Shown: piece after piece, positions 3,681 to 48,915 of the stretch
Numbering within the stretch: the first letter of the stretch is position 1
Layout: the number at the start of each line of letters is the position of its first letter
Source of the DNA: a virus
Strand: one strand, 5' to 3'
Virus record (IMG/VR): IMGVR_UViG_3300031555_005249
DNA length: 64,000 bases
The notes under the pieces: generated by a model
What the model saw: the letters and a program-made list of their open reading frames with translations, nothing else
Database searches by the model: none
What the model was told of the DNA's origin: nothing
Position numbers and translations under genes: made by a program

Positions 3681-3703
3681 ATTATTAATCTCCTTTTACG
3701 AGT

Positions 3704-3742
3704 AAAAAACAGGCGGCGATAATCAATCCCGCCGCCTGTTTT
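3704..3742 (-). terminator. rho-independent terminator for gene 3777..4166
   Basis: Hairpin AACAGGCGGCG...CGCCGCCTGTT followed on the minus strand by a T-tract. Confidence 0.5.
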
Positions 3743-3776
3743 AAGTCTTAAGTTCAAATATTACGTTCTATTGCTA

Positions 3777-4166
3777 TTACTCAGCATCAGTATCAACGGG
3801 AAGAGTGTAAGCTGTCTTTGTCTTACCATCCTCAGTCTTTACCTTGCACTTTGCAATTGCGCCAGACTCAACAAGGTTGTTAAGCTTAGCCTGAATCTTA
3901 TGAACAGTAAGCTCGCCGCTCTCGTCATTCATTGCAACAAGAATGTCGTCTCTTGTCTGAGGCTCGTTAGTAATTACTGCAAAGACGTTGCCTTGAAGCT
4001 CGTCGCCTTCAGCTCTCTTAGCGGCTGCGCGCTCTCTGTTCTTTGCATTTTTCTTGTCAAGCTTTGCAAGCTCGTTCTCTGCGTACTCTACGAATTCTGC
4101 GTTGTCTGCATAAAGCTCCTTCCACTCGGTGAGCTTCATAGCTGTTGTTCTCTTTGTGTCTGCCAT
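3777..4166 (-). CDS. small early protein, member of a 3-paralog family (with 12369..12779 and 13351..13755)
   Basis: ORF-track ORF with TAA stop. Shares length (~130 aa) and layout with two other early proteins: N-terminal helix, central K/R/A-rich segment, C-terminal KV.T..K.YTL-like motif. Confidence 0.55.
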   Translation of the reverse strand: MADTKRTTAMKLTEWKELYADNAEFVEYAENELAKLDKKNAKNRERAAAKRAEGDELQGNVFAVITNEPQTRDDILVAMNDESGELTVHKIQAKLNNLVESGAIAKCKVKTEDGKTKTAYTLPVDTDAE

Positions 4167-6667: not shown

Positions 6668-7071
6668 GTAATTGGGCAAAAACAGGTGAAGCTTATTTTG
6701 GAGATTCTTTTGATAGAAAAATAACTCTTGGACCTGGGGAATTGAGTTTTAGCGCTAATAATTGCGTGATAGATCAAGATGCTTTATCTTCTATAGTAGG
6801 ATATGATAGTGCTAATACTTATGCAATGGCAACTAGTTATGAAAAGCCAATAAGTATAGGCTACTGTGGAGATATAAGTGCTAAGGCAGATTCTGTTAGC
6901 GCTTTACAAGTGGATATTTCAGCAAGAGTAGATCAGCTTGAAGAGAAGCTTGATACAGTAATGGCGCGCATTGATGAGTTAAAGCAGTCTGTTTCACGTA
7001 CTTCAAGATTGCGTTCGTTATTAAGAACGTTGCATTATAATAGCGAAGTTGAAAGTGGCGCCAACTTTTGA
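6664..7071 (+). CDS. hypothetical protein
   Basis: ORF-track ORF, RBS GAAAGGAG, no TAG. Confidence 0.55.
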   Translation: MSNWAKTGEAYFGDSFDRKITLGPGELSFSANNCVIDQDALSSIVGYDSANTYAMATSYEKPISIGYCGDISAKADSVSALQVDISARVDQLEEKLDTVMARIDELKQSVSRTSRLRSLLRTLHYNSEVESGANF

Positions 7072-7328
7072 TGTAAGCTGCTAAGGGTGCAGATTGGCGC
7101 ATGAACCAACACGATTTTGCTACGATTTTAATTGAACTTGCTTTTGATAAAAGGCGGCATGACAACAGATTGTTGCAAAACTATTAAAGATGATGCGATA
7201 AGGAAAATATAGAAAAGAGTATATCGTCGAAAAATTGGCAAATTAAGGTAGTATTATGGAAAAAATTTTGGACAAAAATAGATACAATTACTACCTTAAT
7301 TTTTATATAATAGTGAAAGGAGTTAGTA

Positions 7329-7526
7329 ATGACTCGTGAAGAAATAATATTTTAGTTAAAGGAGATGCGCGCAAAAGGTTATACGTATAAGTTGATTGCG
7401 AAAGAGGCAAAATTAGATAATCCTGATTAGCTTTATAAGTTTATCAATAGAGATGCTCCTGCTATTTGGGTGAAGCAGCAATTAGAGAACTATTTGCGCC
7501 GAGTAAACGGAAATGGGTCAAATTAA
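7329..7526 (+). CDS. small HTH-like protein, TAG-recoded (2 TAG)
   Basis: RBS AAAGGAG. Translation MTREEIIF[TAG]LKEMRAKGYTYKLIAKEAKLDNPD[TAG]LYKFINRDAPAIWVKQQLENYLRRVNGNGSN, TAA stop. Confidence 0.4.
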
Positions 7527-7551
7527 AGAAAGAGTGATTTACACTCGAAAA

Positions 7552-7689
7552 ATGGCGTACGAATTACGCAAGTTGGGTTTTAAGATTATTAGAGTGATAC
7601 CTGATGAGAAGAAACCTTATTTTGATAATTATGTATTTGAAGATAGTCTTGAGTTACAAGAGGCTATGCGCAAATTATCTTAGGTTTAA
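7552..7689 (+). CDS. small hypothetical protein (1 TAG before TAA)
   Basis: Translation MAYELRKLGFKIIRVIPDEKKPYFDNYVFEDSLELQEAMRKLS[TAG]V then TAA. Weak RBS, so tentative. Confidence 0.3.
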
Positions 7690-7714
7690 AATAAGGAATC
7701 GGAGGTATCGGATA

Positions 7715-8398
7715 ATGATTAAAGAATTTAAGAATAATCCTGTAAGAGATTTTGGTAACGTATATCAGACTATGTTGTCACAGATAAAAAAGAGATATGA
7801 GAAAGATCCTGTACAAGCTGGAGAATTAGCTATTAGTTTTATTGAATATGTATTAACAGGTGATATTAGTAGTGACGATGATATTATTGAAGGCTTTGTT
7901 GAAGGATATAAGGTTACGACTAAAAAGAATCAAGATAAATATGATGCTAAGGTCGCTGCAACAAGAGACGCGCTAAAGCCAATTGCAGATATGTATAATA
8001 GGGGTATGACACAGGCGGCGATTGCGCGTGAGCTAGGTGTTCAGCCGCCCGCTATTTCAAAGAAAATGTCTACCATTCGTACACAGTTTCCAGAGTTGTT
8101 AGATAATGAAGGAAAATTAAAGAAAGTTTCCGAAAATTCTGGAAATAATGGAAAGTTTCCAAAAAATGAGGAAAGTATAGAAAAAGTTTCTGAAAATTCT
8201 GGAAATATTAAGAAAGAAGAAGAAAGTTTAGAAACGTTTCCAAGTTTCCAAAGTTTCCACAATAATAATAACTATAATAACAATAATAACTAGAATAATA
8301 ATAATGAAGTTTCCATTTCGCCTCGCGGCGAGTCAGGGCTTCGCCCCGACACCCCTGCGGCTTCGCCGATAAAGAAGATTGGAGGGTTTGAGTTTTGA
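7715..8398 (+). CDS. HTH DNA-binding protein (sigma-region-4-like motif GMTQAAIARELGVQPPAISKKM) with repeat-rich C-terminus; 1 in-frame TAG
   Basis: RBS GGAGGT. Internal ATG of ORF 7604..8293, continuing through the TAG at 8291 to a TGA at 8396-8398. Contains GTTTCC iteron-like repeats at the DNA level (see repeat feature). Confidence 0.5.
8120..8260. repeat. iteron-like array, 6 copies of GTTTCC(A/T) followed by an AT-rich AATAATAAC tract
   Basis: GTTTCC at about 8126, 8155, 8186 (GTTTCT), 8236, 8244 and 8253. The last three are tandem with ~8.5-bp periodicity. The AT-rich low-complexity stretch spans 8261-8310. Confidence 0.4.
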
Positions 8399-8790
8399 GG
8401 GGAGTATATGTAATTGCTGATGATATGGGAAGAGTTTACTATGTGGGACAGAGTGAATAGTTGGAAAATAGAACATGGGGACATTTAGCTAAAATAAAAC
8501 AAGATGAGAATAAATATAAGAAAAATAAATTATATTGGATATTGGGTAGATTGAATGATTTAAAAGTTGGGCTTCATTGTTATTTATTAGAAGAGTATCC
8601 GTCATGGAATAGAATCGATATTAAGACAAGAGAAAAAGAAAATATTCGATTGTTAAAACCTGTATTAAATACTTAGGTTCCTACTGATTGCATTTGTTAT
8701 ATGAAGAATATTTGGAATGCGGTAACAGCGGCAGTTCAGGCAGATGAAAATGGAAGATGGGATTTTAAAGGATGTAGGAAAATATGGTGA
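8395..8790 (+). CDS. small GIY-YIG nuclease-family protein, TAG-recoded (2 TAG)
   Basis: TTG start overlapping the upstream TGA. Translation ..RGVYVIADDMGRVYYVGQSE[TAG]LENRTWGHLAKIKQDENKYKKNKLYWILGRL... carries the GIY-YIG signature (GVYVI...VYYVGQS...R...H). ORF-track piece 8461..8676 lies in this frame. TGA stop. Confidence 0.5.
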
Positions 8791-8877
8791 AGATGTGGAG
8801 AAATTATAGTAGAGTGGAGAGTTGTCCTGCGACCGAATCCAGAACCACTTCCACTCATCTCTCGTCTTCGTTATCCC

Positions 8878-8910
8878 TATTGATTTATAATAAAATATAT
8901 GATATAATAA
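8878..8910 (+). promoter_or_regulatory. plus-strand sigma-70-type promoter, TTGATT-17-TATAAT
   Basis: ttgatt at 8880-8885, tataat at 8903-8908, spacer 17. Confidence 0.55.
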
Positions 8911-8942
8911 TTATAGAAAATATAAGAAAGGAAATAATACCA

Positions 8943-9314
8943 ATGAATATTGAAGATATGATCATGAATGGTGCATCTGAAGAAGAGATTGCAGAAGCTA
9001 TAGACCAGATTCGCGCCAAGAGAACCTTGAAAATGGAAGAAGAGCGTCAGGCGCGCGAATCTCAAAAGAAGAAAGATGAAGAGCAGACCGCGAAAGAGGC
9101 GCTTAAGGCAGAGGCTCGCGCGCATTTCATCAATGCTGTACTTGCATATAGTGAGGCTTTTGACCTTTTGGAAGAGGGAGAGAGCTGGACTGAAGAAGAT
9201 CTAAAAGAGGTGGAAGAGTACCTTATTCAGATTGAAGGAATAATTCCTATGTATGCTAAGATGATGAAGAAGAAAAAGGAATTCGGATTTGGAGATCTTT
9301 TTGGATTGATATAA
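8943..9314 (+). CDS. hypothetical E/K-rich coiled-coil protein
   Basis: Internal ATG (MNIEDMIMNGASEEE...) of ORF 8784..9314 with RBS AAGGAAATAATACCAATG. TAA stop, no TAG. Confidence 0.5.
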   Translation: MNIEDMIMNGASEEEIAEAIDQIRAKRTLKMEEERQARESQKKKDEEQTAKEALKAEARAHFINAVLAYSEAFDLLEEGESWTEEDLKEVEEYLIQIEGIIPMYAKMMKKKKEFGFGDLFGLI

Positions 9315-9606
9315 GCGCCGGTCCAGGTTATAGAAGTATAAATATAGAGAATAGAGCGTTGGGTAAAACCCGGCGCTCTTATTGTTTTACCTCTTGACGC
9401 GACGAAGGCGCATTGGCGCCGAGGAGCGAAAGTTAAAAATTTTTCAAAAGTAGATAATTGTATTACCTTAATTTTAATATAACAATGACAAAGAAATACA
9501 TTGTCACTAAGAAAGATTGTAACGAATTATTAAACTACTTAATTTTATAGTCATTATAAAAGTCATTACAATCTTTCCAATACTAAAAGAAAGGAGATGA
9601 ATTATA

Positions 9607-10314
9607 GTGAAACTTGTTGAAGGTAAAATAACTTTAGCTAATTTGGCTACTTGGCTAGGAGTATCTGCAGGCACCCTGCGCAATAATAAAAGTAAGTATT
9701 TAAATATTTTAGCTCGCTATTGCCGATATCATGAAGAAGGAACTACCAAAAAGACTCTTTATATTGATGAAGTATACGAAGCAGAATATTCGGCGCTATA
9801 GGGTCCAAAACCTTATCAAAGAGTAAAAGAGTTAACAAGAGAGGGTTGGAGCGCAGAAGGGCTAGATAGTTGTGCTCTTGTTGCAAGTCGTAATTTTCCT
9901 ATTCTATAGCAAGAGGGATACACAATTACAGAAAATACCAATTATAATTATACTTGTTAGAGCAGAACGGAACTTTGGGGCAGTCCTATGAAGCGCACAA
10001 ATGGTGAGCTTGGCTATTGTCGTTATGAGTATTGTAAAATTGGACCTTAGGGCAAGCTTGTTCCGCTTAATGAGGAAGAATAGAAGATTAAGCGCTAGAT
10101 CACAGAGAAATACTTTGGTAATTTAGAAGATTTTACTCTTGGGATAGCTGATGATATTAAAACTGGTAAGATTACTGCGGAAGAGGCTGGTATTGCATTA
10201 GCTAATTTAGGTAGTCATGGAGAATATTTAGCTTGGAAGAATGAACTTGAGGCTAGACTAGGTTGTAAGATTTATAAAGGAACAAGAATACATAATGAAG
10301 AGAGTGCGTTTTAA
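9607..10314 (+). CDS. HTH-domain protein (N-terminal ITLANLATWLGVSAGTL), TAG-recoded (about 7 TAG)
   Basis: GTG start after an AAGGAG RBS. ORF-track piece 9607..9801 continues in frame through TAG codons to a TAA at 10312-10314. No TAA/TGA inside the 236 codons. Confidence 0.45.
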
Positions 10315-10335
10315 TGCGCACTCTTTTTGCCGTGT
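10300..10335 (+). terminator. rho-independent terminator
   Basis: Hairpin AGAGTGCG-TTTTAAT-GCGCACTCT followed by TTTTTGCC. Confidence 0.5.
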
Positions 10336-10484
10336 ATTTATTTTTACTATGCATTTCTAGCAAAAGTACTACACGTAGTAAAATCAATACACGATGAATG
10401 TGGTAATTTGCTAAGTTTTTTAATCATACTCAGCCTATACTTCGCTTGATAATAAATAATATTAGGTACATTTGCAACCTTTCT

Positions 10485-10565
10485 GCGTTACCCTTTTTTA
10501 AGGCAACGGCAACTATAAGTAAGGAGTATGAGAAGTTGTTGCCTTGTTTTAAGGTAACAGAAGCG
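10485..10565. other. long imperfect palindrome in a ~550-bp non-coding region
   Basis: cgttaccctttttt-aaggcaacggcaact...agttgttgccttg-ttttaaggtaacag. No convincing ORF between 10335 and 10900. Confidence 0.3.
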
Positions 10566-10914
10566 CCTTTCCATTTTATTACATTTTTACCAAATTTTGG
10601 TAATACGCATCTATACTACCCTCAAGTCACGGCCTCCCCTTAACTCATTAACCAATAGTAGCTCCTTTCTTCTTTACTATTGTCATCTTTTATTCTTTTC
10701 ACTATAATTATACCATAATTTTCACTAAAATTCAACTTTTTCTCTTGGATCTAGGCGGCAATCATCATATTTTTCATTTCTGCGACCAAATTTTAGCATT
10801 ATTGAAAGAACAAAAACAAGGAAAATACATTAGAAATATGAGTTTTTGATAAAATATTCATATATTATGCGAAAAAATTGATAAAAATGCTAATTATAGG
10901 AAAAAATAATGAAA

Positions 10915-11160
10915 ATGAAACAACCAAAAATCGCGGGCGTTATAGTGGAAAGCACTGGACTAGAGCGATGACGGCTCTTTGCGATTGTCCGCGGCCCGAG
11001 CATATGCGCGTGCGCGCTATAGAGGTAGAATTAAGGGAAAACAGTGACTGCGCCAAACAACTATTTTTCGGTCGGTATAATATGGAAGAGATGGTAGATT
11101 CTGGAAACGGGGCTAGCCGGTGGCTAGCGACCCGCGCAATTATGAACAAAGTGTGAACAA
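10915..11160 (+). ncRNA. GC-rich structured element, candidate ncRNA of unknown family
   Basis: About 245-nt island of ~60% GC in a ~30% GC context. It holds several perfect local hairpins (AGAGC-gatgacg-GCTCT; TATGCGCG-tg-CGCGCTATA; GGCTAGCC-ggt-GGCTAGC) and long-range complementarity (CGCGGG at ~10922 with CCCGCG at ~11135). A bidirectional terminator follows at 11180-11215. Overlapping ORFs on both strands (10878..11156 and 10940..11149) translate to Arg/Ser-rich low-complexity sequence. Confidence 0.3.
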
Positions 11161-11179
11161 GGGCGCAGATAAAAAAAAC

Positions 11180-11215
11180 AGAAGGCTTTACCCTCTGTTT
11201 TCTTTTAGTGACATT
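11180..11215. terminator. bidirectional rho-independent terminator
   Basis: Hairpin AACAGAAGG-ctttac-CCTCTGTT flanked by an A8 tract upstream and TTCTTTT downstream. Terminates the plus-strand element and minus gene 11222..11464. Confidence 0.5.
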
Positions 11216-11221
11216 TGGCGC

Positions 11222-11464
11222 TCAATCCTCTGTCACCTCTTCCTCTCCGTTTTTATCATACAATTTTCCGTCTGTACAACAGCCGTCATAGGTCAGGCGC
11301 ATATATTCTATCCAATGATGACCGCAGTTATGACATCTGCGCTCTATTGAGATTATCTCGTATAAGTCACCATTCTGTTCGGTGACATCTATCTCGGGGT
11401 CACTTGAATTATAGACCTTTTCAAACTCGCCGCATTTCGGACATTCGTATTCTCTTGTTTTCAT
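11222..11464 (-). CDS. zinc-ribbon protein (CPKC...CHNC)
   Basis: ORF-track ORF with TGA stop. Two CxxC pairs. Confidence 0.55.
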   Translation of the reverse strand: MKTREYECPKCGEFEKVYNSSDPEIDVTEQNGDLYEIISIERRCHNCGHHWIEYMRLTYDGCCTDGKLYDKNGEEEVTED

Positions 11465-11748
11465 TCTTCTTCCTCGCTTTCTTCGGGAATATCATAAGAT
11501 AGGATTGTTCCATAGTATATGGCAGTATACAAATTGCGCCATCGTTTTTCGCAATTAAGACATTGATAAGTTTCCTCAACGAAGCCGTTGTTGTCATTTG
11601 GATATTCAAATGGATTTACTCCACTTCCATCATTCCAAACGATATTATCAGATTTGCAAAAAGGACACACAATCCCTGCTTTGGGAAGTCTTACCATAGT
11701 ATTATTGGCGGTATAGTTTCCTGTTTGTAATTTCTTATATATATTCAT
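11461..11748 (-). CDS. zinc-ribbon protein (CPFC...CLNC), acidic C-terminal tail
   Basis: ORF-track ORF. Its TGA overlaps the next start (ATGA). Confidence 0.55.
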   Translation of the reverse strand: MNIYKKLQTGNYTANNTMVRLPKAGIVCPFCKSDNIVWNDGSGVNPFEYPNDNNGFVEETYQCLNCEKRWRNLYTAIYYGTILSYDIPEESEEEE

Positions 11749-11784
11749 TCCTCTTCCTCGCTTTCGTAGTGGGGGTGACTTTCG

Positions 11785-12255
11785 TCACCCCTCGGTAAAG
11801 TAGGTGTCAAATTCGCCTTTAGTTTTAAGCGATTCAAGACCTTTCTTCGTGTATCTCGTCAAGTCAAGCTTAAAGTATTCACCGCCTTGCTTGAACACTA
11901 TCATTTTACCCGCCTTGACGATTTTACAGTAGTCTGCATTTTCCGATATAGCGGTTTCGATTGCTTGGATAATTCCGTTCTTAGTTTTATCCTCTTTCAC
12001 TACCCTCTCGCGCTGTGTCTTTTGCTTATACTCGGTTGATTTAGCTTTATGAACCGTTGCGCTAACTCGATTCTCTTTAGCTTTTGCGGTGAGTGCTTGT
12101 TCTTCTTCGTTGTCGATATAATCGTTATCAAAGAGCCAAAGGTCAACCGCCTCTTGCCGTGAGCATTTAAGCATACGCATATTCAGCTCTATTGCCTCAT
12201 TCGGTACTCGCACTGTGCGCCCGTTCTCAAGGGTATAAAGGCTATAATCTGCCAT
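11785..12255 (-). CDS. hypothetical protein
   Basis: ORF-track ORF with TGA stop. Promoter at 12290-12322. Confidence 0.55.
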   Translation of the reverse strand: MADYSLYTLENGRTVRVPNEAIELNMRMLKCSRQEAVDLWLFDNDYIDNEEEQALTAKAKENRVSATVHKAKSTEYKQKTQRERVVKEDKTKNGIIQAIETAISENADYCKIVKAGKMIVFKQGGEYFKLDLTRYTKKGLESLKTKGEFDTYFTEG

Positions 12256-12289
12256 TGGTTTTTACCTCTCTTTCTGTCCTCTTGACATA

Positions 12290-12322
12290 TATATTATACC
12301 ACACTCTTGGTCATTTGTCAAG
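12290..12322 (-). promoter_or_regulatory. sigma-70 consensus promoter, TTGACA-17-TATAAT, with AT-rich UP-like tract
   Basis: Plus tgtcaa at 12316-12321 and attata at 12293-12298. Upstream (minus sense) AAAAAATTTTTCAAAAAC tract. Confidence 0.65.
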
Positions 12323-12368
12323 AGGTTTGGTAAAAGTTTTTGAAAAATTTTTTTGGTATGAGGGAGAA

Positions 12369-12779
12369 TTACTCTCCCTCTACCTCGTCTACTACCCCGT
12401 AATTAAGGGAGTAGTATGCAACTTTCTTTTCAAGGGTGCGCTTAAAGTCTGCGCTCTTGGACACGATAGCGGTAATCATCTGTGACGATACGTTATCTCC
12501 GTTAGCTCTCTTATACTCTTTGATAGAATCGACCTTGAGGAGTGAGCCAACGGTCATTCCCTTTTCATCTACACACTCGGCGAGAGCGTCCTTGATAAGT
12601 TCGGTTACTGCGAGAGCGTCTTTCTGCGCAGGAGTGAGAGAAGCGGACTTTGAGTTCTTACGGGAGAGAAGCTCTATCTCGTGAGCCATAACATCTGCCC
12701 ACTCGGTTTTGCCGTTCTCTATGAGGAACGCTTTGATGTTCTCAAAATTCTCTCTCTTGGTGATTTTCTTTTCTGCCAT
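12369..12779 (-). CDS. small early protein, paralog family member
   Basis: ORF-track ORF with TAA stop inside the hairpin loop. Paralog of 3777..4166 and 13351..13755. Confidence 0.55.
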   Translation of the reverse strand: MAEKKITKRENFENIKAFLIENGKTEWADVMAHEIELLSRKNSKSASLTPAQKDALAVTELIKDALAECVDEKGMTVGSLLKVDSIKEYKRANGDNVSSQMITAIVSKSADFKRTLEKKVAYYSLNYGVVDEVEGE

Positions 12780-12856
12780 AGTTTTCTACCTTTGCGATCT
12801 GTGACCGCCCTTTCAAAATTTTTTATTTCAAGAGGATTTTCCTCTTGATTACATAT

Positions 12857-12889
12857 ATATTATATCACAAGTTTGTGATTTTGTCAAGG
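12857..12889 (-). promoter_or_regulatory. P1 promoter, TTGACA-17-TATAAT
   Basis: Plus tgtcaa at 12882-12887 and attata at 12859-12864. Confidence 0.65.
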
Positions 12890-12996
12890 GGTTTTTGAAA
12901 AGTTTTTCAAAAATTTTTTATTTTTTTCAGTGGTTGCAACTACGGGACGATGCCTCGCAAGGTCGTTCTATCCGTCACCGCCCCTTGACTACGATA

Positions 12997-13029
12997 ATAT
13001 TATATCATAAAAAGATAAATTTGTCAATA
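12997..13029 (-). promoter_or_regulatory. P2 promoter, TTGACA-17-TATAAT, ~130 bp upstream of P1, with conserved leader ATTATCGTAGTCAAGGGG
   Basis: Plus tgtcaa at 13022-13027 and attata at 12999-13004. The 25-nt block ccccttgactacgataatattata recurs at 15301-15325. Confidence 0.55.
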
Positions 13030-13080
13030 GAAAATGGGAAAATAATTTGCACAAATTTGAGAGGAATTTTGGTGAGAAAA

Positions 13081-13097
13081 TTGTGCAACTTGCACAA
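13081..13097. promoter_or_regulatory. palindromic operator-like site TTGTGCAAcTTGCACAA
   Basis: Perfect 8-1-8 palindrome, with an additional half-site TTTGCACAAA at 13047-13056. The same motif occurs at 15409-15425 and 19508-19525, and half-sites at ~15375, ~16819, ~18296 and ~19079. Confidence 0.45.
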
Positions 13098-13140
13098 AAA
13101 CGCACAAATCGGCCCAGCGGCGGCCGCCGTTGGGCCGGTC

Positions 13141-13169
13141 AAAAAAAGACCTCTGCCGTCGCAGAGGTC
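13141..13169 (-). terminator. rho-independent terminator (minus) plus adjacent GC hairpin 13111-13136
   Basis: Plus A7 then hairpin GACCTCTGC-cgtc-GCAGAGGTC, which reads on minus as hairpin followed by a U-tract. Second hairpin GGCCCAGCGGCGGCCGCCGTTGGGCC. Confidence 0.5.
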
Positions 13170-13350
13170 TATCCTCGAGGTTGACCATTCTCGCTTTCTC
13201 GCCACTCCTTGCGCATAGGGGACTTTGGTTTTAATGGTCTGCAAAGGCGTGTGATTTGAACACACATCTGTTGGAAACGAAACCAACTGTTCTTCCATTA
13301 AACTACCCTTTGTTATGTATGAGGGGCGCATTTGCGCCCCTGTGCCTCAC

Positions 13351-13755
13351 TCACGCAAGGCGAAAGTAAGTGACCTTTTTGTCAATGGTCTTGACTACAT
13401 CACCGCAGTCAACGAGCTTTTTAAGCATAGAGGAAACTCGCTGTGAAGATGTTTCCTTACCATCTGCCCACTCAAACTCTGCGATACGAGAATCCTTTGC
13501 TATCGCACCGCACTGCATACCCTTTACATCGGTTGCTTCTGCGAGAACATCATGAATGAGGTCAAGGAAAGTATCAACTTCCTCTGCGCGCTTTGCGCTG
13601 ACCTTACCACTCTTGCTTTCAAGCTGACCGAGCTTCTTTTCGGCAAACTCGATTACTTTATCCATAGGGATTGTGGTCGGCTCTCCGCTTGCCATCTTGA
13701 TGATTTCCTCATACATCTGCTTCTGTGTGTACTTGATTTCCTTGATTTCTGCCAT
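13351..13755 (-). CDS. small early protein, paralog family member
   Basis: ORF-track ORF with TGA stop. Paralog of 3777 and 12369. Confidence 0.55.
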   Translation of the reverse strand: MAEIKEIKYTQKQMYEEIIKMASGEPTTIPMDKVIEFAEKKLGQLESKSGKVSAKRAEEVDTFLDLIHDVLAEATDVKGMQCGAIAKDSRIAEFEWADGKETSSQRVSSMLKKLVDCGDVVKTIDKKVTYFRLA

Positions 13756-13832
13756 AATTTTTTTCCTCTCTTGCTATTAGGTTGCAACCCTTTAATTTTA
13801 TTTATCAGAGGTATTCCCTCTTGATTACATAT

Positions 13833-13865
13833 ATATTATACCATACTTTTTGGTATTTGTCAATA
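13833..13865 (-). promoter_or_regulatory. sigma-70 consensus promoter, TTGACA-17-TATAAT
   Basis: Plus tgtcaa at 13858-13863 and attata at 13835-13840. Confidence 0.65.
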
Positions 13866-13906
13866 GGTTTTTGAAAAATTTTTTATTTTTTTTCTTGGGT
13901 AGAGGG

Positions 13907-14626
13907 TTATTCACCCTCTACCTCTTTGCGCTTATGAAAGGGATATACCCATTCACCCTCTGGAGTTAAGCAACCGAGTTTCGTGCGCTCTTGGAAGATA
14001 TTACAACCTCTTTTTCCAAGTTCACAAAGAATACGGAGTTCCCATTGAACATCGGAAAGTGCGGTATGTTCCTCAACAAAATCTTTATCTTGGTTAAGAA
14101 ATGCGGTTACACCCTCAACAGAGGTCGGTATATATTTACCACTTGGAGTGCGGAGTTCGTGTTCGTTGCAAAATGCGATATAATCTGCGGTAGAGCATAT
14201 GTCGTATTGTGCATTACACCATATATCTATAACCTCGATTTTGTCAAGTGGATTCAAAATACCGAGCGCAGTTGCGGTTCTGCGGAATTTGTCCTCGTCA
14301 AACTCGGAGTTATAGGCAAAGCCATACTGTATGCCATATCGGTCAATATCTCTTGCTATTTGCTCAAATATCTGTTTTTCGGTACGGAGTATTGCCGTTC
14401 CGTTCTCAACATTCAAGTCAAACTTTGCGAGTTTTTCTGCTTTGACGAACATATCATTCAAGAGCCAAATGCGGTTGTGATAATGTTTGCCTACAAGATA
14501 GTCTTTGCCTTTGAGTATCTTATACTTAAAGGTTGTTAAGTCAACATCTGCTATACAATAGCCTATGTTAAGTAGTGTTTGGGTACAACACCCTGCGGTT
14601 TCGGTATCAAATACCATAATGTTCAT
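13907..14626 (-). CDS. DEDDh-type 3'-5' exonuclease (DnaQ-like)
   Basis: MVFDTETAG (Exo I D-x-E motif) and HTALSDV (Exo III). 239 codons with no TAG, TAA stop. Confidence 0.65.
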   Translation of the reverse strand: MNIMVFDTETAGCCTQTLLNIGYCIADVDLTTFKYKILKGKDYLVGKHYHNRIWLLNDMFVKAEKLAKFDLNVENGTAILRTEKQIFEQIARDIDRYGIQYGFAYNSEFDEDKFRRTATALGILNPLDKIEVIDIWCNAQYDICSTADYIAFCNEHELRTPSGKYIPTSVEGVTAFLNQDKDFVEEHTALSDVQWELRILCELGKRGCNIFQERTKLGCLTPEGEWVYPFHKRKEVEGE

Positions 14627-14683
14627 TTTTTCTTTTCCTCTCTTTCTGTCATAGGGAGTAGCCCTCGCTCTCCACTCGACATA

Positions 14684-14716
14684 TATATTATATCACATCT
14701 TGACGAATTTGTCAAG
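14684..14716 (-). promoter_or_regulatory. sigma-70 consensus promoter, TTGACA-17-TATAAT
   Basis: Plus tgtcaa at 14709-14714 and attata at 14686-14691. Overlaps the 3' end of upstream gene 14712..15158. Confidence 0.6.
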
Positions 14717-15158
14717 AGGTTTTACAAAATTTTTTCAAAATTTCAAAAATTTTTTCGGGCGGAAATGCGTCACCCTTAGTCCACTCAAGGCGGTTGCGCT
14801 CTTCATCGTCAAACAGTATGCCCTCACTCTTGGCTACGGACGATTTGGGTGTGCCATATGGAACGATATGCAATTCATCAAAAATAACGGACTTCAAGTG
14901 CTTTTTGAGCCATTTGCGCTTGGCTTTAGTGACCGCCTTGTTATAGTCCTCAGTTGCGGCTTTAGACAGCCACGATATAACACCTATATGAACGCCATTG
15001 CGCTGAGCCTTATTCAATGCTCTTGCAAGTGCAGACATATTGTGCATAGGTCTTGCTTCTTCATATGGGCGCGTTCGCTTGGCTTCAAGGTCATCGAGCC
15101 AGCCTTCGACCGCATAAAGGTCAGCAACGGTGCCGTCAAGGTCTAAATAAATTGTCAT
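14712..15158 (-). CDS. HAD-superfamily 5'(3')-deoxyribonucleotidase-like protein
   Basis: N-terminal IYLDLDGTVADL (DxDGT HAD motif I). ORF-track ORF with no TAG. Confidence 0.6.
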   Translation of the reverse strand: MTIYLDLDGTVADLYAVEGWLDDLEAKRTRPYEEARPMHNMSALARALNKAQRNGVHIGVISWLSKAATEDYNKAVTKAKRKWLKKHLKSVIFDELHIVPYGTPKSSVAKSEGILFDDEERNRLEWTKGDAFPPEKIFEILKKFCKTS

Positions 15159-15190
15159 TTGGTTTAGTTCCTTTCTTCCTTACTGCTCTT

Positions 15191-16105: not shown

Positions 16106-16305
16106 TTTAATTTAAGCTCCTTTCTAATATTGATAATTCCACGAAATTCTGCGGTATAGATTGCTTCACAGTGAGGGCAACAAACTTTAGCCTCAAAATC
16201 TGCTTCATACCCGTCAAAATTCCATATCTTTGCATCCACATCTCCACAGAACAAGTCATCTCTGGTTATAAGTTTATCGCAATTTGGGCATTTAATCATT
16301 TTCAA
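16102..16305 (-). CDS. zinc-ribbon protein (CPNC...CPHC)
   Basis: ORF-track ORF. Confidence 0.5.
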   Translation of the reverse strand: MKMIKCPNCDKLITRDDLFCGDVDAKIWNFDGYEADFEAKVCCPHCEAIYTAEFRGIINIRKELKLK

Positions 16306-16489
16306 ATTCTCCTTGATATTCTCTTATTGTGCAATATCCACTCCAACGCCATTCAAGGCATTGTTGATTGATATATTCTTGTGCCTGTTCTTGACTATCA
16401 AAGATAGGCGGTTTATTATCTCCTATGAATCCTTTATGCAAGAAGCCGTTTGGACAAGAGCGAGTATGAATATAAATTACATATTGCAT
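16292..16489 (-). CDS. hypothetical protein (MQYVIYIHTRSCPNGF...)
   Basis: Internal ATG of ORF 16292..16825. The upstream part of that ORF overlaps the tRNA and promoter, so it is discounted. Confidence 0.45.
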   Translation of the reverse strand: MQYVIYIHTRSCPNGFLHKGFIGDNKPPIFDSQEQAQEYINQQCLEWRWSGYCTIREYQGEFEND

Positions 16490-16509
16490 AAGTATTACCT
16501 CTCTTTTTT

Positions 16510-16584
16510 TGGTGAAGCGAATGGGAATTGAACCCACAACGCAGTTGAATAGTGTCAACCTCATTACCTTTGTGATACCGCTTC
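16510..16584 (-). tRNA. candidate amber-suppressor tRNA (anticodon loop contains CUA), CCA encoded
   Basis: Minus-strand read GAAGCGGTATCACAAAGGTAATGAGGTTGACACTATTCAACTGCGTTGTGGGTTCAATTCCCATTCGCTTCACCA. Hand fold gives a 7-bp acceptor stem (GAAGCGG/TCGCTTC, one GU) with discriminator A + CCA, a T-arm GTGGG-TTCAATT-CCCAT with canonical TTCAA T-loop, and an anticodon arm GTTGA-CACTAT-TCAAC whose loop centre is CTA. The D-arm is short (3 bp) and the anticodon loop is 6 nt by hand, so it is non-canonical or my fold is imperfect. Sits between genes under a consensus promoter ~7 nt upstream. Confidence 0.55.
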
Positions 16585-16595
16585 TTATTACATTT

Positions 16596-16628
16596 ATATT
16601 ATACCATATAATCTTGCTTTTGTCAAGA
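16596..16628 (-). promoter_or_regulatory. sigma-70 consensus promoter driving the tRNA, TTGACA-17-TATAAT
   Basis: Plus tgtcaa at 16621-16626 and attata at 16598-16603. The predicted TSS falls a few nt upstream of the tRNA 5' end. Confidence 0.6.
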
Positions 16629-16779
16629 GGTTTTCGAAAAATATTTGCAACTATTTTTCTTATCTCCGATACTTTCCTACTCAAAGCTTTCGTGTCCGTT
16701 CTCTTGTTGTACACCAAGTTTCTGATTTCCATTCCTTGCAAGTTAATTTCTCCGCACGAGGTTCCCCCTCTTGACATTA

Positions 16780-16812
16780 TTATTATATCATACAATCGGG
16801 AAAATGTCAAGT
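16780..16812 (-). promoter_or_regulatory. second upstream promoter (P2-type), TTGACA-17-TATAAT
   Basis: Plus tgtcaa at 16805-16810 and attata at 16782-16787. TGCACAA half-sites at ~16819 and ~16860. Confidence 0.5.
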
Positions 16813-17013
16813 GGTAATGTTGCACAAAGTTTCAACAAAAAAATGGCGGGAAGTGTACAAAATGCACAAAACGGAACGCGCCGGCCGGGCTCGTTCCGCT
16901 CGGATTTCAGGCAAAAAAGAAAAAACCCAGAACTCATGAAAAGCTCTGGAAATTTGTTGAGAGGTCTACTTCGTGGAAATTCGGACTTGGCGCGACCGCC
17001 TTCGTCCGTCAGC

Positions 17014-39352: not shown

Positions 39353-39380
39353 CTAAAACGAGAAACAAGGAGGATATATA

Positions 39381-42300
39381 ATGGCTAATTAGGAAAGAAT
39401 TAATTTCTAGGTTGGTTTTAATGTAGATTAGTCTGGTTTAAATTAGTTAAAAACAAGTTTATCTAATTTATAGAATATGAAACCAGCGGACTTAACTAAT
39501 ATTAAAAATTTGGCTGAGGCTAAAAAAGAATTATCTATTATTCAACAAGAGGCTAAGAAAGTATAGAATGCACTTGAAGCTAGTTTTAATCCTACGTTAG
39601 GCACGCATAACATTGATATTTTTAAACAAAAATTAATAGAAAATGGTGCTTCTATTTAGGATATAAAAAATAAATTTGCATCTGCGGGTGCCGAAGGTAC
39701 AACTGCATTTAGAAATTTAGCAACAGCAATTTCATCAACTAAATTACCGCTTCAAGAGACACATAATTTATTGCGCTCTATGGGCACTACATTGATGAAT
39801 ACTATTAAATGGTCTATTGCATCTTCAGCTTTATAGACGATCACTTCTTCTGTTCAATAGGCATGGAATTATACTAAATAGCTAGATAAATCATTAAACA
39901 ATATTATGCTTGTTACTGATAAAAGCGCAGAGTCAATGGAGAAATTTGCGCGTCAAGCAAATAAAGCGGCTAGGGAATTAGGTAAAAGTACTAAAGATTA
40001 TGCCAATGCTGCTTTAATATATTACCAACAAGGTTTATCTGAAGAAGAGGTAAGAGCTAGAACAGAAACAACGCTGAAAGTTGCAAATGTTACGAAACAA
40101 AGCACAGAAATGGTTTCTGAACAATTAACCGCGGTTTGGAATGGTTATAAGGTATAGGCGCAAGAAGCTGAAGCTTATATCGATAAAATTGCAGTTGTAG
40201 CAGCAACAACCGCAGCCGACTTAGAAGAGCTCTCTACTGGTATGTCTAAAGTTGCTTCTGCGGCTAGCAATATGGGAGTTAATATTGATTAGTTAAATGC
40301 AATGTTAGCAACTGTTATTTCCGTTACGCGCCAGGCGCCTGAGTCTGTTGGTACAGCATTTAAAACCATTTTTGCTCGTATTAGTGATATTGAAGCGGGC
40401 TTAGATGCAGAAGCTACTCTTGGAGAATACACAAAACAAATGTCGCAATTGGGCTTTGATGTTTTAGATGCGAATAATAAACTACGCGATATGGGTAGCG
40501 TTGTTGAGGAAATTGGTAGTAAATGGAATACATTGTCGCGTGAACAATAGATTTCATTGGCATAGACAATGGCTGGTACTCGTCAGTATAATAATCTTTT
40601 AGCGTTATTTGAAAACTGGAGTATGTATGAGAAGTCTGTACGAGATTCTGCTACTGCAACCGGATTTTTACAAGAACAACAAGAAAAATATTTAGATTCT
40701 GTTGAAGCTCATTTAGAACAATTAAGCGCGGCAGGTGAGCGTGTATATGATGCTTTGTTTGATTCAAAAAGTACTAATAATCTTATTGATATTTTAACTG
40801 ATTTTGTTACATTTTTTGGTAATGCTATTGAATCAATAGGGGGCGGCGGTACTTTATTAATGGCTATTTTACCAGTAATGACTAAATTATTTTCTGGTAG
40901 TTTAGCATCTGGCATGGCTACATTTGTTACTAACATTCAAAATGCATAGCAGTCTGCTCAATCGCTGCGTGGATTATTAGAGAATATTAAAGAAATTCGT
41001 TTAAATGGGGATACTTTGACTTCTGATTATGATGAAAAAATTAGCGCTTTAAGAGAAAATTTAGTATTATTAAAGCAATAGGGTATTATTACAAATGAAA
41101 CTTTTAATAATTTAACAGATACTATTAATGCTTTTGCAAATGCAGCTAATGAATACGAGAAATCTATAGAAGCTTATGATCCTACTACAATAGGAGATTA
41201 GTATACAAAAATTTTATAGCGTGGCTTTAATATGCCTCCTGCTGGAAGTAAATCCTCTGTCACAGAAGAGTCTGCATAGCTTTATATAAATCGTTTATCT
41301 GAATATGCTCGTGAAAATCCATTTTCAAATGAAGATTTTATAAGAATGGAAAATTCAAGTGTTGAATATATGGATGCTTCTGCTGAAAATTCTTATAAGA
41401 GATTATATTTTGAGTTAGAGAATGTTTAGGCTGCATATAACGAAACTATAAAACGTGCATAGAATTTAACAAAAATTATTAACAATACATCATGGGATAA
41501 ATTTAAGCAAGAAGGAAGCCCTGCGGTTAAAAAGTTTAATGACGAACTTCAGCATACGTTAAATGATGTTAATAAAATTTCATAGTCTGGATTACTTTCT
41601 GGATAGGACTTAACTCATTTTAATAAATATGCGTCAGTATTAAAAGGATTTAATAAAGATACAAAAATTACTCAAGAATAGTTTGATCAAATATAGACAG
41701 CCGTGTCTGAAATTGAGCGTTTAACTAAACGCGCAATGGGCAAGGGCAATACAGAAGCTAAAAAGATGTAGCAATCTTTACGTGAGCTTGGCGCAGCGGG
41801 GGTTGAGGCAAAATCTACTATGGATTAGTTTGGTGTGGCTGCTGAAATGGCATTGCGTAAAGCTAACCTTGAAAAGCAAATTAATTCATTTATTCAATTA
41901 ACATCTAATATTAGTATGGCAATTTCTGCGTTGACAATATTGTCTAATTTAGGTTCTATTTGGAAAAATGAAGATTTAACTGTTGGAGAAAAACTGTTAT
42001 AGACATTATAGAATACTGTTACTACAATATCATTATTAAGTCCATTGATTACAGGTCTAATTAAATTATATAGTACCCATAATGCTAAACTTGCAGAAAA
42101 AAATATTTAGACTGCTCAAGAAATTGCTTTAACACAAATTTTAACAACATTAAAAGATAAAGAAGCTAATGCAGAAACTAAACTGTGGGCAGCCAAATGT
42201 TTAGTAGATTTAGCCGGGGATGAAATAAATGATGAACTACGCGAAGAAATTAATAATCATATTTTAAACGGTGAAGCATTAGATAATGAAACTATAGCAA

Positions 42301-45300
42301 TTTTAAAAAATGCTGCTGCTAAAAAAATTGCTAATAATACTGATAATCCTTCTTTTAAAGATACAACGAAAGATATTTTTGATAGTGGGAAAAATAAATT
42401 TAAAGATTTTGGTAGTGGATTCAAAGAAGGCTGGAAAGGCACTGATTTAAAAGGCGTTAAAGGATGGAAAGCAGGTGGCGCAGGAGCCAAGGCAGGCGCA
42501 GCAAAAGGTGGCGCTGCTGGTATTGGACAAGCTATTGGAGCGGTGGCGCCTTATATTGCAGCATTTGCAGCAGTGGCCGCGATTATTACAGGAACTGCAG
42601 CAATCGGCATTGCTGTTTAGAATAAAGAGCAAAAAGCTTTTGAGCAAGCAACAGAAGCTGCAAAAGCTCAATAGGCACAATTACAAGCCACACAACAAGA
42701 ATGGGATAATTTATAGTCTTCTATTTCAAATCTAGAAAATGCTAAAACTGCTTTAGAAGATTTAACTGAAGGAACGGTTGAATGGAATAAGGCTTTAACA
42801 GATATTAATAATCAAGTCTTAGATTTATTAACTAAATATCCTGAATTAGCATCATATATGGAGCGCGATCCTATTACTGGAGAATTATCTATTGATCCAG
42901 AAGGCTTAGAGCTAATATAGCAGAAATAGTATGAAGAACTACAACGTGCTACATCTCGTACCTTACTTACAGATATGGCTGCCGATCGCAAGGAATATGA
43001 GTATGCTCGTAAAGAATATGTAGAAGGTTCTAGTTTTGGAGGTCAAGCAGGTGCAGATTTAGCAGCGGGAGCAGGTGCCATTGGCGCCACAGCAGGAGCT
43101 GGTATTGGCGCAATTTTTGGACCGTTAGGTATGGTTATCGGCGCAGCTATTGGTGGAGTTGGCGGCTTAATTGTTACAGCGATTACGGATGCAAATGAAG
43201 ATACTAAAGCTCAAAACTTAGAATCTGATGAATCTTATCGCAAAGCTATGGATGCCTATACCGCTGGTAACACAGCTGTTTTTAATTCTTATGAAACATT
43301 AGCAAAGGTTTTAGGTAAAACAACGAATGAGTTAACGGATACTGAAAGAGCATTGGTTGATAATACTGCAGAGACTAAGGCTTTAGCTGAAGCTTATCGT
43401 GCAAATGAAGCAGGAAAATAGGATAAATATATTGAGCTTGGTAAATCTATATTAGGAGAAGGCTATTCTTTAGGTGAGTATTATGCAGCAGGAGAAAAGG
43501 CTGATACAGAATACTAGGCCTCATTAGAATAGGTTAAATCTCAATATGCTGGTTTTGATCAAGCAGACAAAAAAGCAGGAATAGATTATTTAAAAACATT
43601 AGGGTTAGATGAGAGTAATTTTGTAGGCACTAAAGGTTCTAATAGATTTTAGTATATCGATGCGGAAGGCAATGAACAAGATATATCGATGACTTAGATA
43701 TATGCGGCTTTAGCTTCAGATATGGCTTCAGATTTAGCCAAATCGACTAAAGGCATTACGACAATGGCATTGGCGCCAATTGTAAATAAATTTCAAGATG
43801 AAACTGCAAAATCTGCTGTATCATTATTAAGATCTGGTAATGCAAATTATGAAAAGTTAAATAAGGCTGCCTTAAAAGAATTAACATCAGTTACATTAAC
43901 CGCCGAAGAATTAACTAAATTAAGTGAAGCAACTGGTAAATCTGCAGATGATTTATTGAGTGTTCATGAGGCTGCTGTGACGGCAGCTAACGCCTCATGG
44001 GATAAAGTAACTTTAGATATGCCTATTCATATGCAAGCTGCTTTTACTACATTAGAAAACTCAATTACAACTGATTTATTAAGTCCTGAGCAGTGGGCTG
44101 CATTTAGTGGATATTTTACTGAATTATGGGAGCGCTATGGCGCAGAATCAGCTAATAAATTTGCTGCCGTATTTACTTCTATGGGTGAAGCATCAGATGA
44201 TGTTATCGTAGCAATATAGGAAATAGATTGGTCTTCTATTGATAATGTTGAAAATGAAATTAAGAGAATTTTTACAGATTTAAATGTTACAGTTCCTAAT
44301 GATGTTTTTGATGATTTTACGGCACAATGGCGTGCTTTGTGGGGCCAGGCCATTACTCTTGAAGAGCTTCAAGATAGTTATGCTAATTTTCAATCTATTA
44401 TGCAAAAAGTTGCAAAAGAGAGTAAGATTGCATAGGATGAATATGATAAGTTATCAGATAAACAAAAAGAGTATTTTACCGTTTTAGCTGACGGTACAGC
44501 ATTATTAATTGGTAATGCTAATGAATTATACTAGCAAGGTAAAAAAGACGAGAGAGAAAAGTTTTTTAATAGTTTAAATATTAGTCAAGGTAATTTACAA
44601 AATTATACATAGAAAAATATTGAAGCAAATAAAGCAAGAGATGACCTAAATAACCTTGATAGAGTATCAAAGTTTATTGATGTATCAAATTTAAATATTC
44701 CAAACACAATAACAGTTTCAAATATACCTAATTTGACAAGTGGAGAGGCTTCTTTTGATACAATTGTTGCTGCATTTACAGGAAATAAAACTGGAGATCT
44801 AACATGGTCTAAAAATTAGACACAAATTATAAATGCAGCTTGGGAAAAAATAAATAATGCTTCAGCATCAGATTTATATTATAATAAGGATAAATTTTTA
44901 CTTTCTGGAGGTTTTGGCCATTGGGGGTAGAGCCGAGTAAAGGAACAAAATGCCTTACAAGGGTTTAATACTTTATTTTCAGATTATATAGATATATTAA
45001 TAAAGAAAAAAGTAGCAGCCGGAGATTTAATTGAAAATAAAGATTATGACACTTATGAAAAAGAATATAATGAGCTGCAAGGTAAAATTGAAAGTGAAGT
45101 AAGTAACACGACTATAAATGAAGAACAAAGAAAGTATGATGGTGTAATGCATCAGCTGCTTACTACTTATGATTCTGTCACAGAGCTTGAAAATGCATTA
45201 ATTAATGGAACAGCAATTAAAGATTTTGTAAAGGGAGATATTTATACTGTTACAGAAGACTAGAAAAAATAGGCTATTGAAGCTATTGAACTTCGTACTG

Positions 45301-48300: not shown

Positions 48301-48809
48301 AGAATTATTCATCATGGGCAGCTCTCAATCAAAGTGGAGATTTATCTAAAAACATAACGCAAAACCAAAACTCAAATGATAGAAGTGGAGTATATTTAGA
48401 TAATGCTGAAGAGGTTCTCAATTTTACAGAACTTTATAATAATTATAGACGATTATCTAAGTTTGATACTGGTGGTTACACAGGAGACTGGGGCGCCGAG
48501 GGCCGACTTGCGATGCTTCATGAGAAAGAAATAGTTCTCAATAAACAAGACTCTTCGAATTTCCTTGATGCACTTGATATTCTCCGCACTTTAAATCTTT
48601 CGATGGTTGATTAGATGGCGAATTACAATTTTGGTTTTACGCATTCTCAAGCGGCATGGGAAGCGCTTAATAGTTCGACTATTGAATAGATTGTTAATAT
48701 TAATGCGGAGTTCCCGAATGCTACTGACAAGGACGAAATTAAAGAAGCTTTTGAAGACTTGGTTAATTTAGCATTGTAGTATACAGGTAAGAATTCTCGA
48801 GTTAAATAA
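39381..48809 (+). CDS. tail tape-measure protein (3142 codons), heavily TAG-recoded (on the order of 100 TAG)
   Basis: ATG 39381 with RBS AAGGAGG. All ORF-track pieces 39906..40157, 40302..40550, 40569..40949, 42975..43421, 43722..44219, 45630..45818 and 48291..48614 lie in frame 0. Stretches I translated between them contain only TAG, with no TAA/TGA. Contains a TP901-family tape-measure core (ELSTGMSKVASAASNMGVNID[TAG]LNAMLATVISVTRQAPESVGTAFKTIFARI), Gly/Ala-rich putative TM segments, a peptidoglycan-binding-like repeat (EEAIKEY[TAG]LRMGLAPTGKLDAQTWEAM) and the C-terminal tape-measure motif (FDTGGYTGDWGAEGRLAMLHEKEIVLN). TAA stop at 48807-48809. Confidence 0.75.
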
Positions 48810-48850: not shown

Positions 48851-48915
48851 TCTATTTAATTTATTTATTATAATTTTTATATTTTTAGAAGAGAAAAAAG
48901 GAGGTATAATAATTT

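Follow-up and report, generated by a model that had tools for sequence, protein, structure and literature searches.

Phages that read TAG as glutamine (Gln) are thought to time their late genes by way of a suppressor transfer RNA (tRNA). The tRNA-Sup-CTA genes of code-15 gut phages have been surveyed (bioRxiv 10.1101/2021.08.26.457843), and phAss-1 (OQ749652), a 136-kilobase (kb) phage that reads TAG as Gln, encodes a 3149-amino-acid (aa) tape-measure protein and 36 tRNAs, three of which are tRNA-Sup-CTA (PMC10607447). Here we analyze a 64,000-nucleotide (nt) stretch of viral DNA, IMG/VR record IMGVR_UViG_3300031555_005249 (hereafter, the window), and a 75-nt tRNA-like gene on its minus strand, tRNA-A, which, like the phAss-1 suppressors, has CUA within its anticodon loop. 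An earlier reading of the letters alone (the sequence-only reading) had taken this gene for an amber-suppressor tRNA. We find that tRNA-A is a genuine tRNA-like gene, beyond chance, with a non-canonical anticodon loop. Our preferred reading, held with middling confidence, is that tRNA-A is a recently acquired, strain-specific tRNA of the suppressor type that decodes UAG little or not at all, and that the main decoder lies outside the window. For the annotation and understanding of abundant gut phages that read TAG as Gln, it is important to know the real decoder, and the only CUA-bearing candidate in this lineage has a loop that textbook rules deny decoding.

Pfam matches to YonG, YonD, YonB, YomU, YomV, YomW and YomX identify the phage of the window as SPbeta-like, and its genome size is ~125-135 kb. 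It resembles phAss-1 in being SPbeta-like with a genome of ~130 kb, in a tape-measure protein of ~3150 aa, in a large tRNA array and in late TAGs that align to Gln. The two phages differ in sequence, with no nucleotide similarity and 26-52% protein identity (43% for the terminase).

tRNA-A has an intact tRNA body and a six-base anticodon loop

The sequence of tRNA-A, read on the minus strand from 16584 to 16510, is GAAGCGGUAUCACAAAGGUAAUGAGGUUGACACUAUUCAACUGCGUUGUGGGUUCAAUUCCCAUUCGCUUCACCA, and its parts are as follows (MFE, minimum free energy).

16510..16584, minus strand: tRNA-A, 75-nt tRNA-like gene (Rfam tRNA model, relaxed ARAGORN and MFE fold)
16584-16578 and 16520-16514, minus strand: the two strands of the acceptor stem
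16575-16561, minus strand: D-arm
16559-16544, minus strand: anticodon arm
16549..16554, minus strand: six-base anticodon loop CACUAU, with CUA at 16552-16550
16543-16538, minus strand: variable region
16537-16521, minus strand: T-arm
16513, minus strand: discriminator A
16512-16510, minus strand: encoded CCA

The acceptor stem has seven base pairs (bp), six Watson-Crick pairs and G7.U66, and the T-arm, GUGGG/UUCAAUU/CCCAU, has the standard G53-C61, T54-A58 and U55/C56. The bases for tertiary contacts, U8, A14, G18, G19 and A21, are all present, as read from the sequence and the ARAGORN drawing, and an A15-U48 Levitt pair is possible. The D-stem has 3 bp and a C13.A22 mismatch, around a D-loop AAAGGUA that includes G18 and G19; it is equally weak in ARAGORN and in the Rfam alignment, and the MFE fold departs slightly from both in its pairing of the D-arm. 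The sequence-only reading had placed the 75-nt gene, its 7-bp acceptor stem, the encoded CCA and the textbook T-arm correctly, as well as the anticodon stem GTTGA/TCAAC with CTA at the loop center. It had also allowed that its hand fold of a 6-nt loop and a 3-bp D-stem meant either a non-canonical molecule or a mis-paired position; that fold is right, and is the one found by relaxed ARAGORN and the Rfam alignment and, for the loop, by the MFE fold.

With laxer filters, tRNA-A scores 38.9 bits against the Rfam tRNA family (RF00005; gathering score 29), with E=1.1e-4 when the whole window is compared with all 4227 Rfam families, and is therefore more than a chance resemblance. An Rfam gathering run under default fast filters did not report it, and ARAGORN found no gene there at its default settings. 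With a lowered threshold (relaxed), ARAGORN drew a 75-nt cloverleaf, and the MFE fold is also a cloverleaf (-21.3 kcal/mol, z=-2.35).

The anticodon stem, GUUGA/UCAAC, closes on six nt in relaxed ARAGORN, the Rfam alignment and the MFE fold alike, and no pairing of the tRNA-A sequence yields a 7-nt loop. In the other register, which arises if the closing pair A31-U39 opens, the stem is GGUUG/CAACU, base 26 is lost and the loop is the 8-nt ACACUAUU (16555-16548). In the CUA reading, the canonical flanks are changed, with A in place of U33 and U in place of purine 37. U33 makes the U-turn of the anticodon loop, and a modified A37 steadies the A36-U1 pairing, which matters for suppressors that read U-starting codons such as UAG. 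Because the stem closes on six bases, ARAGORN leaves the anticodon undefined. The sequence-only reading had named ARAGORN as one check on its proposal; on that check the proposal falls, with no tRNA at default settings and a relaxed call of '?(Ser|Pyl)(ct)', a two-base anticodon and not CUA. Measured against its tRNA class, tRNA-A thus has the expected body and lacks the 7-base loop, U33 and purine 37.

The same 75 nt, with the same loop, are present in seven other assemblies, which rules out a sequencing or assembly indel as the source of the 6-nt loop. Six of these assemblies match the window at 100% identity across 5-8 kb, and L011, the remaining one, at 99.6%; given this near-total identity, they represent one clone and are silent on selection.

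The phage reads TAG as glutamine

When TAG is read through, fragments on the plus strand join into long open reading frames (ORFs) from 22.8 kb on. The 26 late ORFs contain 195 in-frame TAGs, which make up 34% of their Gln-type codons, and none of the 26 ends on TAG; none of the 36 early ORFs has an in-frame TAG. The longest loads are in a tape-measure-like ORF of 3150 codons (39357-48809, plus strand; 82 in-frame TAGs) and a second long late ORF of 1655 codons (48913-53880, plus strand; 32 in-frame TAGs), and this load implies very efficient decoding of UAG. At eight TAG positions of the terminase, the residue is mostly Q among 120 database homologues, which were themselves translated under an alternative code. 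The codons were therefore compared directly, and TAG in one genome aligns with CAA or CAG in others, and vice versa. TAG is thus a sense codon (Gln) and the genome needs a UAG decoder, as the sequence-only reading had claimed for the recoded genes; the TAG/CAR exchange and the 195 late TAGs bear it out.

In loop size, tRNA-A agrees with frameshift-suppressor tRNAs (6 nt preferred, an 8-nt register possible). Quadruplet or frameshift decoding was considered and rejected: TAG behaves as a triplet equal to CAA/CAG, the ORFs keep their frame, and the base that follows an in-frame TAG is unbiased (A61, T52, G48, C34).

tRNA-A is an insertion in the 5' untranslated region of an early gene

The gene lies between a promoter and a small early ORF, in the following arrangement.

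16782..16810, minus strand: promoter P2, perfect TTGACA-17-TATAAT with upstream TG, 184 bp upstream of P1
16598..16626, minus strand: promoter P1, TTGACA (16626-16621), 17-nt spacer with TG, TATAAT (16603-16598), 12/12 consensus
16507..16589 (approximate), minus strand: insertion of ~82 nt, AAUAA + tRNA-A + AAA, delimited by eye from comparison with relatives
16292..16503, minus strand: ribosome-binding site GAGAGG (16503-16498) and ORF65, of 65 aa (ATG 16489, stop 16292)

Transcription from P1 is expected to start at ~16592-16590, 6-8 nt ahead of tRNA-A position 1. The sequence-only reading had described both this perfect promoter, with a start a few nt from the tRNA 5' end, and a second consensus promoter ~180 bp further upstream, and both descriptions hold. 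Tandem consensus promoters are not special to tRNA-A because the minus strand carries 13 perfect (12/12) TTGACA-17-TATAAT promoters with an upstream TG between 12293 and 20179; shuffled sequence has far fewer consensus-like sites. The region from 12.3 to 20.2 kb is very dense in early promoters and has the typical character of early genes in phages that infect Gram-positive bacteria.

In relatives without the insertion, the -10 box runs straight into ..GUGAAAGAGAGGUAAUACUUAUG. The P2-P1 arrangement is kept in L001, L002 and L042, where P1 drives a small ORF directly; in L001 and L002 the -10 box is followed by ..GUGAAAGAGAGGUAA(A/U)AC(U/A)UAUG and a different small ORF, with P1 and the ribosome-binding site kept. 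The insertion site in the window is thus between the P1 -10 box and start site on one side and the ribosome-binding site of the small early ORF on the other. The CCA of tRNA-A is followed by AAAAAA, GAGAGG and then the ATG at 16489, and we infer that ORF65 would be co-transcribed with tRNA-A. We asked whether the tRNA travels with ORF65 and rejected this, for homologues of ORF65 occur without a tRNA in L039-L041 (85% identical, directly behind promoter and ribosome-binding site) and in L042 (68% identical, likewise directly behind the promoter). tRNA-A is therefore a ~82-nt insertion in the 5' untranslated region (UTR) that does not depend on the gene downstream and is seen in one strain only.

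A separate observation concerns the ~150 nt between P2 and P1 (16627-16781, minus strand), which have no credible ORF and no Rfam match. Among the relatives (L001 7680-7835; L002 8140-8300; L042 ~3700-3900), the 5' end of this stretch (AAUAAUGUCAAGAGGGGAAC..) and its 3' end (..AAGAAAAAUAGUUGCAAAUAUUUUUCGAAAACCUC) are kept and the middle is variable. The stretch could encode a leader or a small RNA.

An ORF of 177 codons (16292-16825) is open across tRNA-A and both promoters, and a public gene call in one assembly (L008 6636-7085, equal to window 16292-16741, minus strand) places a 149-aa protein across tRNA-A and P1. This raises the view that there is no RNA gene here, the sequence being a chance tRNA-like fold or part of that ORF, a view that the misses of default ARAGORN and of the fast-filter Rfam run would also fit. 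Homologues of ORF65 share its MQYV start and have lengths of 64-65 aa, so the 177-codon ORF and the 149-aa call are artefacts of a chance open frame. Moreover, two perfect promoters fall within the supposed coding part upstream, in whose place relatives have unrelated sequence, the ~82 nt form a clean insertion, all the tertiary-contact bases and the CCA are present, and the Rfam score exceeds the gathering score by 10 bits. We regard the absence of an RNA gene as highly improbable.

A relative of the phage is recoded without tRNA-A

The closest different relatives, L001 and L002, share 86-88% identity with the window on a neighboring 239-aa protein. Relaxed ARAGORN found no tRNA at the tRNA-A slot in L001, L002, L014 or L042, in which the flanking genes are kept, and an Rfam scan of the slot found none in L001, L002 or L014. 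The only one of these slot-bearing relatives with late genes sampled is L014; the loci of L001 and L002 end before the late genes. In the block from terminase to tail tube, there are 7.9 TAGs per 1000 codons in the window, 8.7 in L014, 7.7 in L016 and 6.0 in L017. Hence the idea that strains with tRNA-A are richer in TAG was rejected, the densities in the four being alike, and the recoding of the lineage is independent of tRNA-A because L014 is equally TAG-rich without it.

No sequence kin of tRNA-A emerged above background level: the best match was 52/75 among 119 tRNAs of related phages and phAss-1, and 57/75 among 487 tRNAs from 119 IMG/VR loci. The latter include 124 canonical CUA tRNAs (110 unique), which together with those of phAss-1 gave 113 CUA suppressors for comparison. 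When the locus was compared at the nucleotide level with 50,697 phage records, nothing matched, and a search with the terminase DNA gave distant SPbeta-like matches only. Exact and gapped tRNA-A DNA patterns had no matches in the IMG/VR viral contigs searched, which do not include this strain. Two pattern scans of a metagenome contig collection also gave no matches, which is no sign of absence, as the collection lacks the samples of L006, L007 and L010. Among 185,579 bacterial genomes, a scan for the acceptor stem with the T-loop returned two matches only, a Limosilactobacillus tRNA-Arg(UCU) with the acceptor stem alone in common and one odd sequence; the scan gave tRNA-A neither a host parent nor an isotype.

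tRNA-A therefore fails the tests that define a suppressor: no CUA could be assigned within a 7-nt loop, and recoded relatives lack the gene. It resembles, and probably descends from, a phage suppressor tRNA. What stands of the amber-suppressor proposal in the sequence-only reading is the tRNA-like gene, its central CUA and its strong early promoter; the CUA anticodon itself could not be assigned, U33 and purine 37 are missing, and the relatives do without the gene.

Anticodons and loops vary in other tRNAs of the phage group

The whole-window Rfam run found only one tRNA-like gene besides tRNA-A.

13241-13312, minus strand: tRNA-B, a second singleton non-canonical tRNA-like gene (Rfam, 44.6 bits)

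tRNA-B has C1-G72, C73, no encoded CCA and, in the window, an 8-nt anticodon loop, UUUCGUUU. In the orthologues of two relatives (L001 11322-11391; L002 11294-11363), the anticodon stem is of 4 bp and encloses 7 nt, GUAGGAA (anticodon AGG) in one and GUAGUAA (anticodon AGU) in the other. Substitutions in the acceptor, T and anticodon stems compensate one another; the shape of tRNA-B is thus conserved and its anticodon is not.

Similar variation was seen among the array tRNAs. One set of orthologues (e.g. gggacctt...aagtccctc, no CCA; L022 5181-5254; L037 8846-8920; L025 13877-13950; L029 8116-8191; L031 5132-5207) differs in anticodon or loop, with GAU, an 8-nt loop with GGAU, and UUU. In a family with a long variable arm (L022 5998-6087; L025 14783-14871; L029 9236-9323; L031 5799-5886), three of the four members have loops UA[UAG]GG or UA[CAG]GG with A33, and the fourth has a normal AU[UAG]GA; all have U73, and the hairpin loop of the variable arm is always ACUCC. 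From these comparisons, anticodon arms evolve unusually fast in this phage group.

These data bear on the view that tRNA-A is a tRNA mimic that decodes nothing and whose CUA is incidental, serving as a decoy or sponge for a nuclease or toxin, or as an element for RNase P processing or stability at the 5' end of the early mRNA. The compensatory changes in the tRNA-B stems suggest selection on shape, orthologous array tRNAs switch anticodon and loop size, tRNA-A sits in a 5' UTR, and genes for MazF/PemK-type toxins occur in the same early region of relatives. A target for such a decoy has no direct evidence, the tRNA-A loop is not known to match any nuclease substrate, and the chance of a central CUA in a TAG-recoded phage is ~0.02-0.03; with one strain only, conservation lends no support to a function. 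On balance, we think a mimic rather unlikely.

PemK/MazF-type toxin and MazE-type antitoxin domains were found among early genes of relatives that are syntenic with the early block of the window (L014 2999-3343; L016 2982-3326; L017 1839-2273; L039 2493-2927 and 6017-6373).

Search for another UAG decoder and the proposed role of tRNA-A

The search for a decoder covered the 64-kb window and ~35 kb of relatives, with ~50 kb of the ~130-kb genome outside it. A tRNA array starts ~265 nt past the left edge of the window (L022 3246-6243, L027) and has at least 10 tRNAs in this strain; in a close relative (L037, contig 3300029305_006221), the complete array (6987-15185) has 23. A regular-expression scan for a CUA stem-loop followed by a T-loop matched tRNA-A alone, a search by way of the protein at the far end of the array gave nothing, and related contigs were absent among the listed matches of a generic suppressor pattern. 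phAss-1 keeps two of its suppressors beside nrdD; NrdD as a marker for the suppressor neighborhood was dropped here, since it is found in 2915 phage records. The remaining ~50 kb probably hold the replication and nucleotide-metabolism block.

In our preferred reading, tRNA-A would be transcribed from P1 as the 5' end of an early mRNA, released on its 5' side by RNase P, trimmed by nucleases on its 3' side back to the CCA, and would accumulate as a tRNA-shaped RNA. Its central CUA would point to descent from an amber suppressor or to mimicry of one. With the CACUAU loop it may read UAG weakly or not at all, and the late-gene TAGs, 82 of them in one ORF, would be decoded efficiently by another decoder outside the 64-kb window.

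Several observations weigh against this reading. The main decoder is probably outside the window, but it has been inferred and not seen, and none was found: neither ARAGORN nor Rfam detected a canonical CUA tRNA in the 64-kb window, the complete array of L037 has no CUA tRNA and no tRNA-Gln, the 24-tRNA array of a more distant relative (L038) has Gln(UUG) and no CUA, and the other flanks searched have no canonical CUA tRNA. The chance of CUA at the loop center is ~1/32 to 1/64. The body of tRNA-A is intact and its deviations cluster in the loop, a pattern that neutral decay does not give and that suggests a selected loop. The perfect promoter immediately ahead of the gene suggests that its expression is under selection. 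Finally, in type-II tRNAs of this phage group, A33 stands beside sensible Leu anticodons (UAG and CAG), and these phages may therefore tolerate A33.

A rival view, that of the sequence-only reading, is that tRNA-A works as an amber suppressor: it would be made early, carry Gln or another amino acid, and read UAG as a triplet despite its loop, perhaps in the 8-nt register A-C-A-[CUA]-U-U. The genome reads TAG as Gln and no other CUA tRNA is seen in the window or in the arrays of relatives; CUA is central in the loop, the body and the CCA are intact, the promoter is a perfect consensus, and a 5-bp stem GGUUG/CAACU with an 8-nt loop can form. Loops of eight nt are known in tRNAs that still read triplets, namely yeast mitochondrial tRNA-Thr1 and loop-insertion variants of su7. 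In addition, the loop changes perhaps shield the tRNA from host anticodon nucleases, as nuclease-evading loop changes have been reported for phage tRNAs (PMC10264068), and accessory copies are normal, with three suppressors in phAss-1 (PMC10607447). On the other hand, U33 and purine 37 are absent, the 6-nt loop is thermodynamically preferred and ARAGORN could not assign the anticodon. tRNA-A has no homologue among the 113 canonical CUA tRNAs, and it is absent from the relatives that share its slot, including L014, which is as TAG-rich as the window. Moreover, 82 TAGs in one ORF demand an efficiency above 99% per codon, which is hard to expect from this loop. We therefore consider a working suppressor unlikely, if still a serious candidate.

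We likewise find it doubtful that tRNA-A is a functional UAG decoder whose six-base (or eight-base) loop, without U33 and purine 37, breaks the near-universal 7-nt rule. Such a decoder perhaps escapes a host anticodon nuclease, and would fit a habit of the group, the A33 or extra 5' base seen in tRNA-B, in the type-II tRNAs with A33 and in array members with 8-nt loops. If tRNA-A works, the range of shapes of decoding tRNAs would be wider, and it would offer a compact natural test of anticodon-loop geometry. If it is inactive, CUA within a stem-loop is insufficient for a suppressor call, and the lineage would have to decode its 195 or more TAGs elsewhere or by other means.

Comparison with known suppressors and tRNAs with unusual loops

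The suppressors of phAss-1 have 7-nt loops, CUCUAAA or GUCUAAA, and G73, and default ARAGORN finds all three, whereas tRNA-A has CACUAU, A73 and U10 and is not called. Their first pairs are U.C, A-U and U-A, compared with G1-C72 in tRNA-A, and at most 52/75 positions are identical, which is background only. They lie in the tRNA array or beside nrdD, whereas tRNA-A lies in a 5' UTR. Several suppressor copies per genome are normal in phAss-1.

All 124 CUA tRNAs from IMG/VR (110 unique) are likewise called cta by ARAGORN. The 110 have U33 and purine 37, as do the three of phAss-1, although the pattern by which the IMG/VR tRNAs were searched fixed the loop, so that they are not an independent test of these two bases. 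Among the 110 unique tRNAs of this sample, 56 have A73 and 65 have G1-C72. An argument from the identity elements of glutaminyl-tRNA synthetase (G73, a weak 1-72 pair) was accordingly rejected, and the acceptor identity elements do not decide.

To our knowledge, no nuclease target is known in the host of this phage. Phage tRNAs with substitutions in the anticodon loop have been proposed to escape host anticodon nucleases (PMC10264068). Those tRNAs and tRNA-A are alike in being phage-encoded, with an intact body and changes concentrated in the loop; they keep a 7-nt loop and a readable anticodon, whereas in tRNA-A the loop is changed in length and U33 and purine 37 are lost.

Engineered decoders of UAGN have an anticodon loop size other than 7 (PMC4764823). 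Like these and frameshift suppressors, tRNA-A has a loop that is not of 7 nt, and its 8-nt register places ACUA, or CUA with an extra 5' base, in the loop. Frameshift suppressors, UAGN decoders and tRNA-Thr1 keep U33 and purine 37, unlike tRNA-A, and the TAGs here are triplets. Loops of 6 or 8 nt occurred in 16 of 513 relaxed ARAGORN calls on 1.04 Mb of other phage loci.

Pseudogenes of tRNAs and tRNA-like fragments occur in prokaryotic and phage genomes (PMC9897764). As with such pseudogenes, tRNA-A scores by covariance model and its anticodon cannot be assigned. It differs from the pseudogenes in its full length, intact body, encoded CCA and fresh insertion behind a perfect promoter, and it is neither a decaying array member nor an attachment-site fragment.

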